Below are positions 1 through 4,613 of a stretch of 20,148 nt of DNA, piece by piece. The notes under the pieces are model-generated. The model did not search any database. It had not been told where the DNA came from and saw only the letters and a list, made by a program, of their open reading frames with translations. Position 1 is the first letter of the stretch. Every line of letters starts with the position of its first letter. Made by a program: the position numbers and the translations under genes. This DNA comes from a virus (lineage: Duplodnaviria; Heunggongvirae; Uroviricota; Caudoviricetes), in IMG/VR virus record IMGVR_UViG_2541047958_000001, positions 1 through 20,148 of that record. One strand, given 5' to 3'.

Positions 1-201
1 TTATTTATTCGATTTCTCTATATGGTGATTTAAAATCTCTGCTTTTGCCTCTTCATAAGTTAGCTTACCTCTTATAACTTCATCCTTTATTTTCTGGTAA
101 AATTCTGACCCGCGAGGATCTTTACCTGATAAATATAAGCTAGCCTCTGCTTTCCTAAATGCCTCAATCCTTTTTCTCTTCGTGGTCTCATCCATTTTCA
201 T
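1..201 (-). CDS. Small helical protein resembling VbhA/YhfG-type Fic antitoxins, with a variant motif
   Basis: Complete 66-aa ORF (ATG at 199-201, TAA at 1-3, AGGT SD-like element upstream). Basic N-terminus followed by A-S-L-Y-L-S-G, which aligns with the S-x-x-x-E-G inhibitory motif of VbhA/YhfG but has Ser where the Glu would be. AT-rich. Family assignment is from memory only. Confidence 0.4.
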   Translation of the reverse strand: MKMDETTKRKRIEAFRKAEASLYLSGKDPRGSEFYQKIKDEVIRGKLTYEEAKAEILNHHIEKSNK

Positions 202-214
202 TACTACCTATGTT

Positions 215-1162
215 TTAGTCAGTTGATGAGGTAAATGATATCATTTCGATAACTTCTATTCCTTTAGAATTAATTCTGTAGCATTCGTTTTTCGATTTCC
301 TGATGTATGAAAATGAATCTTTTTTTGTATTGCAATCTGTCTTAGAAAAAGCATCAAGTAAAAGAAAAGACTTCTGATGCTCTGGTATTATCTTTATTGA
401 AAAAACACTAATGAATAATAATGCAATTGCTGTCGATAATAGATCTGCAACTCTTAAGTAGCTATTCGAACATATGAGTATTTTTTTAAACCATATCATT
501 AAAATTAGTTTTGCTCTATTAATATCTTGTGCCATTGTTTTTGCAATGTATAATAGATTCTTTTTATTGGATGAAGTTGATTCTTTATTTGTTTTTTGCA
601 TTGCTTTGAACATGGTTACGATACCGAAAGCTAACCCGAAAACTAACAACATAATAACTTTGAAATCAACCTCTTGGTTTTTTTCAATCGTCTCTCTTAG
701 CATTGCAGAAAAAGTGATGGTCAAAATTACCGCGTAAAAGCATTGATAAGCAGTAATTCTTCCAAAGTATAAGTATATGAAAATGCTAAGGCCATAAATG
801 GATAGAGATAGAGGAATGGCCATTGCGAAAGCATAACCATAAGATGAGTATATTAAGTATTCCGGTTGAATATCGTAATCAAAATTAATTTTATGTTTTG
901 CATACCACATACAAATTGAAAAAATCAATACTGTTCCAATCCATTTAATGATGCTGTGCTCAATCATTTTATTGACGATTGTTTTTTTGTTGTTATAGGC
1001 ACAAAAAATGAATGCTACGGAGAGGAATAATCCACAAACTAAGAAGGTTTTATCTTGAAGTAATAATGGGAACTTCATGATTACAATGCAAGCAATCAGC
1101 AAATATATAATGGATACAATATTGAAATCAAAATTTGCAATGTGTTTTCTAATGTAACGCAT
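215..1162 (-). CDS. Polytopic inner-membrane protein of unknown function (about 8-9 predicted TM helices)
   Basis: 315-aa ORF, strongly AT-rich, repeated 15-25 residue hydrophobic stretches separated by short K/N-rich loops. AAGGA SD 9 nt upstream of the ATG at 1162, overlapping the integrase stop, so it appears co-transcribed downstream of the integrase. No catalytic motif recognised. Confidence 0.6.
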   Translation of the reverse strand: MRYIRKHIANFDFNIVSIIYLLIACIVIMKFPLLLQDKTFLVCGLFLSVAFIFCAYNNKKTIVNKMIEHSIIKWIGTVLIFSICMWYAKHKINFDYDIQPEYLIYSSYGYAFAMAIPLSLSIYGLSIFIYLYFGRITAYQCFYAVILTITFSAMLRETIEKNQEVDFKVIMLLVFGLAFGIVTMFKAMQKTNKESTSSNKKNLLYIAKTMAQDINRAKLILMIWFKKILICSNSYLRVADLLSTAIALLFISVFSIKIIPEHQKSFLLLDAFSKTDCNTKKDSFSYIRKSKNECYRINSKGIEVIEMISFTSSTD

Positions 1163-1172
1163 AAGATATCCT

Positions 1173-2246
1173 TTATTTCAACTTTAACGCTAAATCCTCA
1201 GCTTTTGGATGATAATACCGCATTAGCATTCTCGGGTCTTTATGCCCCGTGATTTTTGTCAGCTCGTGCATGGGGAAAATCTCAGCCAAGCGAGAGGTCG
1301 CTTCATGCCGGAGATCGTGAAATCTTAAATCTTTGAGGAAGGTGTCATCACATTGAGGTTTAGCTTGTTCATATCTTTCTCTGGCGCGCTTTACAGCTCG
1401 ATCAAAAGCGCGGGTGATCGCATCGGCACGCATTCCAAAAACCTTGTCATCAGCTTGTTTAGAACGCTCCTTTAGATTGGATAGTACCATAACAGCCTTT
1501 GTGGATAAGGGGACATCGCGAGCATTACCATTCTTAGTATCTGGCAGATGTGCAACTCGCCTATCAAGATCGATAAAGCGCCATCGAAGTTCTGCAATTT
1601 CGCTACGGCGCATGGCTGTCTCTAACGCCAGAAGAATGATTGCTGGCAATACTAATGAATGTGTTGCGGCAATGATATGTTCGATCTCGTTGGCTAATTC
1701 CTTTCCTGACGTAACACCGGTTTGCTCAGAAACTAAAGGCAGCGCTTCCAGGCGTCTGGTCCTTGAGTTCTTGGGTTGGGGTTTGCGAATGGCCTCTACG
1801 GGGTTCAGCAGGCTCTCCATGCCCCATTCTTTCCGCGAAACATTGAATACATGAGAAAGTAAGGCCAAACGCCTTAAAACAGTTGCAGGAGCATAAATTT
1901 TCAACCATTCATCTCTTAGCTTGGCGACATCGGCACTCCTGATGCTGGCCATATAGTTTTTTGCCAGCTGAGTGCCTTTTAGTATCCGCACCAATGATCG
2001 GTCTTGCACTGCTCCTTTTTTGTCGGGAACAATCTCTTTTTCATAGCGCGTTAGGGCTTCATACAATGTCGTAGATTCCGCTTCGCTGCGGCTAAGCCAA
2101 ACTCCTCTCGCCATTTCTGACTCGATCATTTTGGCCCAAGCATCTGCTTCTACTTTGGTGTTAAAGGTTTTGGTTTGAGAGGGAAAACCACGTTTACGGA
2201 TTTGAGCTTCCCATTGGTAGTTACCACGTTTGCGTATAGTCGCCAT
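1173..2246 (-). CDS. int: Tyrosine recombinase / integrase (unrelated in sequence to the int at 2398-3561)
   Basis: C-terminal catalytic signature: R in ETAMRRSE, HDLRHE box, tyrosine in LMRYYH. ORF track starts at a TTG (2276); an in-frame ATG at 2246 (MATIRKRG...) is the more likely start. Confidence 0.88.
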   Translation of the reverse strand: MATIRKRGNYQWEAQIRKRGFPSQTKTFNTKVEADAWAKMIESEMARGVWLSRSEAESTTLYEALTRYEKEIVPDKKGAVQDRSLVRILKGTQLAKNYMASIRSADVAKLRDEWLKIYAPATVLRRLALLSHVFNVSRKEWGMESLLNPVEAIRKPQPKNSRTRRLEALPLVSEQTGVTSGKELANEIEHIIAATHSLVLPAIILLALETAMRRSEIAELRWRFIDLDRRVAHLPDTKNGNARDVPLSTKAVMVLSNLKERSKQADDKVFGMRADAITRAFDRAVKRARERYEQAKPQCDDTFLKDLRFHDLRHEATSRLAEIFPMHELTKITGHKDPRMLMRYYHPKAEDLALKLK

Positions 2247-2334
2247 TTCTGTCTGATTCCTAACGAACTGTGGCAATATTGTGGCAAAAAATCTATTTAA
2301 ATTCGATAGGTATTGATTTTACAGGACCAATTTA

Positions 2335-2383
2335 CGCATTCGTAATGCGAAGGTCGTAGGTTCGACTCCTATTATCGGCACCA
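2335..2383 (+). other. 3' 49 nt of tRNA-Thr(CGU) (thrW-like): anticodon loop TTCGTAA, T-arm GGTTCGACTCC, acceptor 3' strand plus CCA; att core copy
   Basis: Sequence cgcattcgtaatgcgaaggtcgtaggttcgactcctattatcggcacca carries the T-loop, an anticodon loop with CGT, and terminal CCA; the 5' half of the tRNA is absent (upstream sequence does not fold as D-arm or acceptor). It lies 15 bp beyond the stop of the P22-type int. Confidence 0.8.
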
Positions 2384-2397
2384 TTTAAATCAATAAG

Positions 2398-3561
2398 TTA
2401 CACATCATTAGTACCTTCCTTATTTTTTGACTGGGACAAATTTGGGACCGATGGGTTCAGGATCGAGTCTATTTGCCGTGCGTGTTCGGTAAGGTGATTA
2501 GGTGCAAGGTGAGCATATCGACGAACCATTTCGATAGACTCCCAGCCTCCCATTTCCTGTAACACTGACAACGGGACTCCGGCTTGAACCAGCCAACTTG
2601 CCCAGGTGTGTCTCAAGTCGTGAAATCTGAAATCATCAATACCAGCCCGTCTCAGCGCCGCTTTCCAGGCTGTGTTTGCGTCATACCGCATCTTCCTTAC
2701 TGTTGGCGCTTTCGTTCCGTCTGGTTTGGTACAGCTTTCCTTGTACACAAATACCCAACGGTGATGATTCCCGATTTGTTTTTTCAATACGCGACATGCA
2801 GTATCATTCAGCGCAACGCCGATTGCGCGGTTTGATTTACTCTCTTCCGGGTTTATCCATGCCACCCGGCGCTGCATATCTATTTGTTGCCATTCAAGGT
2901 TGATGATGTTCGAGCGTCTTAAGCCTGTTGCCAGTGCAAATTCAACAACAGACTTTAATGGCTCCGGACATTCATCAATCAGCCTTTGTGCTTCATGGGG
3001 CTCCAGCCAGCGGATCCGTTTATTCTTTGGTTGAGGCACTTTAATAATTGGTGCCTTATCCAGCATTTTCCATTCACGCTCTGCGGCTCTTAGTAGGGCT
3101 TTTATAAATGAAAGATGCGTAGCCTTCGTTGCAACAGACGCTGGTTTTGGCGTGTATTCTGGAACAGGTTTCCCTTTTTTTCTGCATGCTTCTTCCCTGA
3201 GTTTCCAGTTTTCCTCATTACGCCGGTTCGTCATTTTCTGCATTGCTGAATAAATTTTTGATTCAGTAATGTCTCTTAGTTGCATTCCTGCGAAATGTTG
3301 AAGCCAGAACCCGATCCGGCTTTTGTCATCGTCCAGTGATTTTTTATGTGCTTTCTCTTCAAGCCACCTGACACACGCTTCCTCGAACGTTATATCAGGT
3401 ATTTCACCAAGTTTGCTGACCCGCCATGCTTCAGCCTTTAGCTTGTCATGGAGTTCTGTCGCCTGCCTTTTGTCCTTTGTTCCAAGAGACTGTTTAAATC
3501 TTTTACCGTTCGGCAATGTGAAACTGGCGTACCATATTTCACCTCTGCGGAAGAGTGACAT
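2398..3561 (-). CDS. int: Phage integrase, P22/lambdoid type (tyrosine recombinase)
   Basis: 387-aa ORF with HDLRH box and RYAH catalytic tyrosine region; closely resembles the P22-family integrase as I recall it; 3' end abuts the tRNA-Thr att core, as expected for attL-int. Confidence 0.92.
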
Positions 3562-3788: not shown

Positions 3789-4038
3789 GGTTACCTCTGC
3801 TTTTTGAACGCATGTCACGTAACTTCTTAATGTGTTCTGCCGTTTCGATCTCTTCTGCTATCCGATCTGCATCAGCTTTATTCACAGGTTCAAAGTCATG
3901 ATTAAAGCGGAACATGCTGGCGATACATGTTCTGCCTTTTCGGATGTAGTGAACTTTGTTGTGGGTAGAACGCAGGATTTTGCAGGGAGTGCCGTGGTGG
4001 TCGACGTACCAGGTGTTAGGAAAAATGATTCTGAACAT
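3760..4038 (-). CDS. Hypothetical prophage early protein (92 aa, Cys/His-rich)
   Basis: ATG at 4038 with GAGGTG SD 7-8 nt upstream; compact ORF overlapping the xis start by 29 nt; no family recognised with confidence. Confidence 0.45.
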   Translation of the reverse strand: MFRIIFPNTWYVDHHGTPCKILRSTHNKVHYIRKGRTCIASMFRFNHDFEPVNKADADRIAEEIETAEHIKKLRDMRSKSRGNHGIIQPHTR

Positions 4039-4085
4039 TTTTACACCTCAGTTGGACGATGTTGAAATTTGCTGCTTTGAGGCCA

Positions 4086-4304
4086 TCACAGTCCCCATTG
4101 TTTGTTCTTAAGTTCGATCTCCTCCTGGCAACTTGCACAAGTCCGACAACCCTGAACGGCCAGGCGTCTTCGTTCATCTATCGGATCGCCACACTCACAA
4201 CAATGAGTGGCAGATATAGCCTGGTGGTTCAGGCGGCGCATTTTTATTGCTGTGTTGCGCTGTAATTCTTCAATTTCTGATGCTGAATCAATGATGTCTG
4301 CCAT
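4086..4304 (-). CDS. TraR/DksA-family C4 zinc-finger protein (72 aa)
   Basis: Two CxxC pairs (CCEC ... CRTC) in the C-terminal half after an acidic helical N-terminus, which is typical of phage TraR-like RNA polymerase-binding proteins. Confidence 0.6.
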   Translation of the reverse strand: MADIIDSASEIEELQRNTAIKMRRLNHQAISATHCCECGDPIDERRRLAVQGCRTCASCQEEIELKNKQWGL

Positions 4305-4613
4305 CTTTCATTAATCCCTGAATTGTTGGTTAATACGCTTGAGGGTGAATGCGAATAATAAAAAAGGAGCCTGTAGCTCCATGATGATTTTGTTTTTCAT
4401 GTTCACCGTTCCTTAAAGACGCCGTTTAACATGCCGATCGCCAGGCTTAAATGAGTCGGTGTGAATCCCATCAGCGTTACCGTTTCGCGGTGCTTCTTCA
4501 GTACGCTACGGCAAATGTCATCGACGTTTTTATCCGGAAACTGCTGTCTGGCTTTTTTGATTTCATAATTAGCCTGACGGGCAATACTGCGAAGGGCGGG
4601 TAATGACTCCAAC

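Follow-up and report, generated by a model that had tools for sequence, protein, structure and literature searches.

A conserved FicA/VbhA-like gene without the inhibitory glutamate and without a Fic toxin gene on an integrative element at thrW of Escherichia coli

The window analyzed here is the whole 20,148-nt stretch of DNA, and the features at its left end are as follows.

1..201, minus strand: 66-aa gene with the FicA/VbhA fold, Glu-less ('S-type'), defined by the ORF, the PGAP name, its relatives, the AF2 model and selection.
124..141, minus strand: codons of S21-L-Y-L-S25-G26, the counterpart of the [S/T]xxxE[G/N] inhibition motif, defined by alignment and sequence.
215..1162, minus strand: 315-aa multi-pass membrane protein in a variable cargo slot, 13 nt upstream of the small gene (phrog_26661).
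1173..2276, minus strand: tyrosine integrase of the thrW island (Pfam Phage_integrase, E 9.4e-27; annotated as site-specific integrase).
2335..2383, plus strand: 49-nt 3' portion of tRNA-Thr (thrW), the att repeat of the island, an exact match to the last 49 nt of the gene.

The three genes form an operon-like run on the minus strand in the order integrase, 315-codon ORF and, last, the small gene. With the start used by PGAP the integrase has 357 aa (1173..2246). The 49-nt thrW copy separates this integrase from that of a DLP12-like lambdoid prophage (window 2398-3561), and the prophage fills the remainder of the window. After the repeat, the sequence is the one that follows intact thrW in strain MB56, which has the prophage alone; thrW therefore holds two mobile elements one behind the other, and the small gene lies at that end of the remnant of an integrative conjugative element (ICE) which carries the integrase. 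The E. coli islands of this kind are decayed and contain many IS elements. In strain WAT the island spans 15.5 kb from thrW to the integrase and comprises Hachiman, a HigA gene and a conjugation remnant; the Hachiman defence system, an FRG-domain gene and the HigA gene lie at L048 37336-45634. Copies of IS1, IS3 and IS5 replace the Hachiman/FRG/HigA part in strain 2017.06.04CC (L001 1-5045). The conjugation genes left on the thrW island are traJ-trbJ-trbL only, whereas elements in Enterobacter or Pantoea seem to have a complete T4SS.

The small gene is an ATG-initiated ORF of 66 codons (window 1..201, minus strand; product MKMDETTKRKRIEAFRKAEASLYLSGKDPRGSEFYQKIKDEVIRGKLTYEEAKAEILNHHIEKSNK), and its stop codon is exactly where the window starts. 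Which start codon is used is ambiguous: ATG occurs in frame twice at window 193-201, as M1 and M3, with AGG 6 nt before the first, and several homologues start at the second Met (M3), so the mature product may be 64 aa long. In FicA antitoxins the Glu of the inhibition motif is salt-bridged to the Fic motif's second Arg and prevents ATP from binding productively (PMC5033356, PMC8401265). The 66-aa protein does not carry [S/T]xxxE[G/N] with its Glu but reads S21-L-Y-L-S25-G26, with Ser25 (codon TCA, 127..129) in place of the inhibitory residue and Tyr23 where Glu-type relatives commonly have Arg. Ser25 belongs to the inhibitory-Glu column because the profile alignment puts the 's-L-r-L-e-G' of the relatives on VbhA S20-Q-R-L-E24-G25 (PDB 3SHG_B, 3ZC7_B). 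The original prediction had proposed a Ser at this position from the window alone, and the column-for-column correspondence of S-L-Y-L-S-G with S-x-x-x-E-G of VbhA/YhfG was borne out.

Scanned directly, the 66-aa protein gave no match to Pfam VbhA or YhfG and none in NCBIfam or PADLOC. In PHROGs both the 66-aa and the 315-aa proteins matched function-unknown families alone, and tblastn of the two against 50,697 phage records gave zero matches. A PDB search with the single 66-aa sequence returned only repeat-protein and designed-protein noise. On the other side, the RefSeq/PGAP name of the identical protein, present in 17 of 5,426 complete E. coli genomes, is 'antitoxin VbhA family protein'. 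A word-indexed search found six close homologues only, with Glu absent from all of them. A profile built from these six Glu-less proteins, used in an exhaustive search of 1.84 billion protein representatives, retrieved 45 relatives with E down to 5e-22, and Glu-type relatives were recovered by it at E 1e-12 to 1e-9. Most relatives carry A-E-A-S-L-R-L-E-G, that is, the canonical S-x-x-x-E-G in columns matching the window motif. Pfam VbhA (PF18495) was matched by 26 of 44 relatives (best E 2.3e-7, mostly under the gathering score), and YhfG (PF10832) weakly by 14 of the 44. The family profile aligned with VbhA (3SHG_B, 3ZC7_B) from end to end, but at E 0.6-0.8. Membership of the protein in the FicA/VbhA/YhfG family, as judged from these profiles, is one of transitive remote homology only, because the window protein itself has no Pfam or NCBIfam match whereas its relatives match PF18495.

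An AF2 model predicted from the alignment of the relatives (pLDDT 89) has helices at residues 5-24, 33-43 and 49-65, the three-helix, up-and-down FicA fold, and places the motif S21..G26 at the C-terminal end of helix 1. Helix 1 of EcFicA and VbhA likewise has the motif at its C-terminal end (PMC5033356, PMC8401265). In the PDB, Foldseek ranked highest 5nh2_B and 5eu0_B (TM 0.59-0.69, rmsd 2.0 A), which are chains of BiaA bound to Bep Fic domains; their probabilities were 0.82 and 0.72, with E values of about 1 because the protein is so small. Taken with the PGAP name and the remote profile homology, the predicted fold backs the original assignment to VbhA/YhfG-type (FicA) homologues. That assignment holds for the 66-aa protein as remote homology only, and the profile searches did not place the protein in an unrelated family.

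The sole direct Pfam match of the 66-aa protein was SHOCT-like_DUF2089-C (PF22746; residues 33-53, E 5.5e-4), a match also found in 8 of the 44 relatives. It would be compatible with a SHOCT-like or otherwise generic helical peptide that is not a FicA protein at all, but it covers 21 residues and its 19.9 bits are below the gathering threshold of 27, and the SHOCT-like domain was rejected on these grounds. The highly significant full-length homology to Glu-type FicA proteins encoded beside Fic genes and the BiaA folds as best structural matches also contradict such a reading, which we regard as highly improbable. An excisionase or recombination-directionality role, considered for a gene near int, was rejected as well; there was no match to a DNA-binding domain, and the FicA homology is clear.

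FicA genes are located immediately upstream of, and usually overlapping, a Fic-domain toxin gene, and the original prediction accordingly expected a Fic partner immediately left of position 1. The flanking sequence was available from L001, which is identical to the window up to 2393, except for two mismatches at that boundary, and diverges at 2394; the locus is carried by 16 further E. coli genomes. A hairpin lies within the 32 nt past the stop codon of the small gene in L001 and L002; a convergent 70-aa gene comes next and trbL after it, beyond which are a small lipoprotein gene, trbJ and traJ. The hairpin is a perfect 9-bp one, AGGCTAACA-TAA-TGTTAGCCT (L002 7975-7995, just left of window position 1), and is probably a bidirectional terminator. 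The leftward extension thus revealed no adjacent Fic/Doc-domain gene, and the expected partner had to be abandoned. The convergent 70-aa gene was rejected as a partner because it persists where the small gene is absent; in L001 this gene is frameshifted.

No Fic gene was found in the whole 15.5-kb island of strain WAT. A Fic-signature scan of 64 loci (524 kb), with the pattern relaxed from GN[GK]R so that the GNSR of the L008 FicT counts, detected three true FicT genes, one chance match outside any ORF and nothing else, and none of the approximately 35 Glu-less loci contained the signature. An antitoxin-first order overlapping fic does exist in related genes, as described below. Nevertheless, a vbhA-type antitoxin whose Ser variant regulates the toxin of an adjacent fic gene in a different way retains hardly any probability, being contradicted in every sequenced genome that carries the locus: L001 and the 16 other E. 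coli genomes show the hairpin, the convergent gene and trbL instead, and both the Glu-less loci and the WAT island are devoid of a Fic motif.

The gene upstream of the small gene was the other candidate for a partner. The 315-aa protein had no curated family in the Pfam, NCBIfam and PADLOC scans, and its AF2 model was of low confidence (pLDDT 68). A small beta domain makes up its C-terminal 50 residues or so and contains two Cys that are invariant (LDA..T.C...Y.....CY); homologues of the protein, only 23-57% identical, are encoded beside integrases, resolvases or trbL on ICEs and plasmids. The arrangement of integrase, variable slot and Glu-less gene was found at approximately 35 loci from genomes, metagenomes and viral-contig sets, where the 3' side of the Glu-less gene is usually occupied by the convergent 70-aa gene and trbL and sometimes by other cargo. 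The slot holds the 315-aa membrane protein, a 296-aa homologue in Enterobacter (23% identical to the 315-aa protein), an unrelated 465-aa protein, or 85-aa and 93-aa genes with a 208-nt gap behind them. Across all of these slot types the small proteins keep 63-80% identity. The membrane protein, in turn, has 309-aa and 304-aa homologues with no small gene downstream, and some Pantoea islands lack the small gene.

A two-gene module, toxin first, in which the 315-aa protein would be a membrane toxin, an abortive-infection effector or an exclusion factor and the small cytoplasmic protein its neutralizer or regulator, would be in keeping with genes that lie 13 nt apart on the same strand here and have a 14-nt overlap or a 4-nt gap in other lineages, with a slot in the defence/cargo region of the island near Hachiman, and with the function-unknown PHROG families matched by both proteins. 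A toxin-antitoxin pair is however conserved and co-inherited, whereas the slot is swapped among four barely related or unrelated types next to small proteins that stay 63-80% identical, PADLOC matched neither protein, and the membrane protein is also found on its own. These results make a two-gene module unlikely, though it ranks first among the rival readings. The swapped slot and the membrane-protein homologues without the small gene mean that the neighbour is co-transcribed cargo and not an obligate partner; the gene of the 315-aa protein looks like fast-evolving cargo.

The Glu-type relatives occur with a toxin gene, without it, and fused to another domain. On IncP-type plasmids (L008, L051) a 65-aa S-L-R-L-E-G gene, whose product shares 42% identity with the 66-aa protein (tblastn E 1e-9), overlaps (ATGA) a 337-aa ORF with Fic (PF02661, E 4.8e-12, HPFREGNSR) and KfrB parts; in L058 a protein 45% identical to that of the window (P0021) is encoded directly upstream of a 212-aa Fic gene. 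Some relatives are thus true Fic antitoxins. In the sister IncP plasmids L049 and L050 the Fic core is gone and the small gene and the KfrB part are kept, and in L055 the Fic core is deleted internally. The IncP FicA and Fic-KfrB genes lie between korB/parB and kfrC (L008 5001-6208; L051 2501-3708; L049 and L050 2501-3307). IncP plasmids of the mcr-3 type have a deletion of the Fic core, and Pro codons (PPPP) have expanded in the FicA gene that they keep; these plasmids catch an antitoxin in the process of becoming an orphan.

Many Glu-type copies have no toxin gene. On a 2.3-kb ColpVC plasmid a Glu-type FicA-like gene is the only gene besides rep, and on plasmids of about 3 kb such genes overlap the stop codon of the mobV relaxase (ColpVC/mobV loci L012 2173-2367 and L006 1346-1531). 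The nearest Glu-type sequences are the N-terminal domains of FicA-like + HTH_3 fusions of about 142 aa, annotated as HigA antitoxins; over residues 11-60 these domains share 56% identity with the window protein. These fusions made up 105 of the 120 best clusters in the profile search, in which the Glu was kept in 113 of 113 sequences parsed. At about 142-153 aa they are very common in Enterobacterales, where they also follow mobQ on small plasmids (L010 3465-3926; L011 3965-4426).

In L062-L064 the fusion gene (4001-4429) is located directly after trbL of a sister ICE, with no Fic gene nearby; neither a Fic nor a HigB gene was adjacent to the fusions in L062-L064, L010 and L011. The sister ICE and the ICE of the window have TrbL, TrbJ and TraJ proteins that are 88%, 87% and 86% identical, respectively, and the DNA homology between them stops approximately 46 nt past trbL. 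FicA-like genes are therefore a recurrent accessory at the trbL-side spot of this ICE family, with the Glu kept in the sister lineage and lost in that of the window.

Escherichia, Pantoea, Pseudescherichia, Enterobacter and Brenneria all have conserved copies of the Glu-less gene, as do metagenomes. Comparison of the lineages shows saturation at synonymous sites (pS 0.79-0.95) with a pN of about 0.25; the closest informative pair has dS 0.44, dN 0.11 and omega of about 0.25, and omega is approximately 0.17-0.25 across the informative pairs. The Glu-less clade is under purifying selection, indicating that the gene is not decaying. A functionless relic, drifting since the loss of its toxin, might have been expected from the toxin deletions that retain the antitoxin gene (L049/L050 compared with L051; L055), from the absence of the small gene in some Pantoea islands and from the decayed, IS-riddled state of the E. 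coli islands. It is nonetheless very unlikely, given the omega values, the reading frame and length maintained across genera, and the conservation of the very motif positions that were replaced (Tyr/Phe and Ser).

In the 44 cluster representatives the Glu column contains 33 Glu, 9 Ser, 1 Ala and 1 Lys, the Ser count being inflated and its excess partly an artefact, as the query profile came from Ser-type sequences. Within the Glu-less clade Ser occupies position 25 except in one lineage, which has Phe, and position 23 is Tyr or Phe, as against mostly Arg in the Glu-type relatives. Other Glu-less relatives have Glu-type nearest neighbours, and loss of the Glu therefore seems to be recurrent. 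A Glu-less relative with A-E-A-N-C-R-L-S-G lies in a filamentous-phage cluster (Zot, secretin) that has no Fic gene (L052 2503-2727). The A-E-A-S-L-F-L-S-E-K-D of a 1,785-aa phage tape-measure-like protein (L042 1458-6815) is almost certainly a chance match.

The 66-aa protein is an orphaned FicA homologue that has lost both the Glu and the toxin, and we consider it likely that it is kept as a binding-only module acting in trans. The small gene descends from FicA antitoxins of enterobacterial plasmids and ICEs, a clade whose canonical members have S-L-R-L-E-G and overlap a downstream FicT gene, and the window lineage has shed both the toxin gene and the Glu. It is now the terminal cistron of an operon-like run of integrase, swappable cargo and small gene that ends at the putative hairpin terminator. 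Since the Glu is absent, the protein cannot act as the canonical plug. Positions 23 and 25 have shifted together, from Arg/Glu to Tyr or Phe/Ser; this joint shift, and the purifying selection on the rest of the protein, suggest that a small helical binding module is still working. Such a module may complete a helix bundle with a helix of its partner, as FicA does with helix alpha1 of FicT, and so bind in trans without plugging an active site. The close upstream coupling (13-nt gap, 14-nt overlap or 4-nt gap) would also fit a cis partnership and counts against binding in trans. The E28G mutation of EcFicA lowers the stability of its complex by 10 degrees C (PMC5033356), and binding of Fic folds by a Glu-less protein may therefore be poor.

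Two other roles in trans were weighed against the binding-only module. The concept of anti-addiction or immunity by orphan antitoxins has been discussed for pVbh (PMC5675462). An orphan antitoxin directed against a FicT that comes from another replicon or is injected by type IV secretion would agree with the Glu-type relatives, which are often toxin-less (small Col/Mob plasmids, sister ICE) and kept the Glu in all 113 sequences parsed. In the window lineage the inhibiting Glu is lost, with Ser or, in one lineage, Phe at position 25, and exchange of this Glu for Gly, as in VbhA E24G and EcFicA E28G, is the standard way to relieve inhibition (PMC5033356, PMC8401265); Engel et al. reportedly presented such de-repressing mutants in 2012. 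An anti-addiction role is accordingly improbable for this lineage.

The 66-aa protein might instead be a natural 'de-repressing' FicA that binds the alpha1 helix of a class I Fic protein whose gene is elsewhere (host EcFicT or a plasmid FicT) and displaces or replaces the inhibitory antitoxin, a reading to which we assign only a slight chance. If it were so, the Fic enzyme would be folded but unplugged and a mobile element could switch on a resident Fic protein, for instance to arrest growth, abort infection or compete with plasmids that bear FicTA; the recurrent change of Glu to Ser in several lineages would then be adaptive and not drift.

What defines FicA antitoxins is the glutamate plug and the toxin neighbour; the window lineage is without both and is nevertheless selected on enterobacterial integrative elements. 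The FicA scaffold can thus persist after its toxin is gone. Glu-bearing copies that lack a toxin gene are also numerous on small plasmids and sister ICEs, and with the Glu-less lineage they suggest that FicA-like modules do more on mobile elements than control a toxin in cis. Toxin-less VbhA genes on plasmids have been mentioned in passing (PMC10878067), and no account was found in the literature of a FicA lineage that is conserved, lacks both Glu and toxin and is fixed in a family of ICEs. The family label is already in RefSeq and the new part is this lineage; the name 'antitoxin VbhA family protein' at this locus should not be taken as evidence for a Fic toxin-antitoxin pair. Unless a partner comes to light, the lineage is of modest impact.

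Among the known systems, VbhA of Bartonella schoenbuchensis (3SHG/3ZC7) and BiaA (5NH2, 5EU0) are FicA antitoxins of class I Fic proteins. They share with the 66-aa protein a size of about 60 residues, three antiparallel helices (predicted for the latter) and a motif that ends helix 1, and the profile alignment with VbhA is full-length although the similarity is not significant (E 0.6-0.8). Unlike them, the 66-aa protein has Ser for the inhibitory Glu and no Fic gene downstream or in the island. EcFicA/YhfG of E. coli (S-R-R-L-E-G) has the same host species, motif position and size, but yhfG precedes fic in the core genome, whereas the window gene is on the thrW island without fic. Glu28 and Arg25 of EcFicA contact EcFicT (PMC5033356), and their counterparts in the 66-aa protein are Ser25 and Leu22.

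The nearest relatives with a demonstrated Fic gene in cis are the IncP FicA with Fic-KfrB (L008, L051) and the FicTA of L058, with 42-45% identity over the full length; their antitoxin genes overlap that of the toxin and have retained S-L-R-L-E-G, and the window gene shows neither feature. The closest Glu-type relatives, the FicA-HigA fusions of L062-L064, belong to the same ICE family, lie beside trbL and likewise have no Fic gene nearby, but differ from the window gene in keeping the Glu, in their C-terminal DNA-binding domain and in being transcribed in the trbL direction. VbhA(E24G) and EcFicA(E28G) resemble the 66-aa protein as FicA scaffolds without the inhibitory carboxylate. They are laboratory mutants still with their toxin, whereas the window lineage is natural, selected and toxin-less, and it alone has a second, co-varying change, from Arg to Tyr/Phe.
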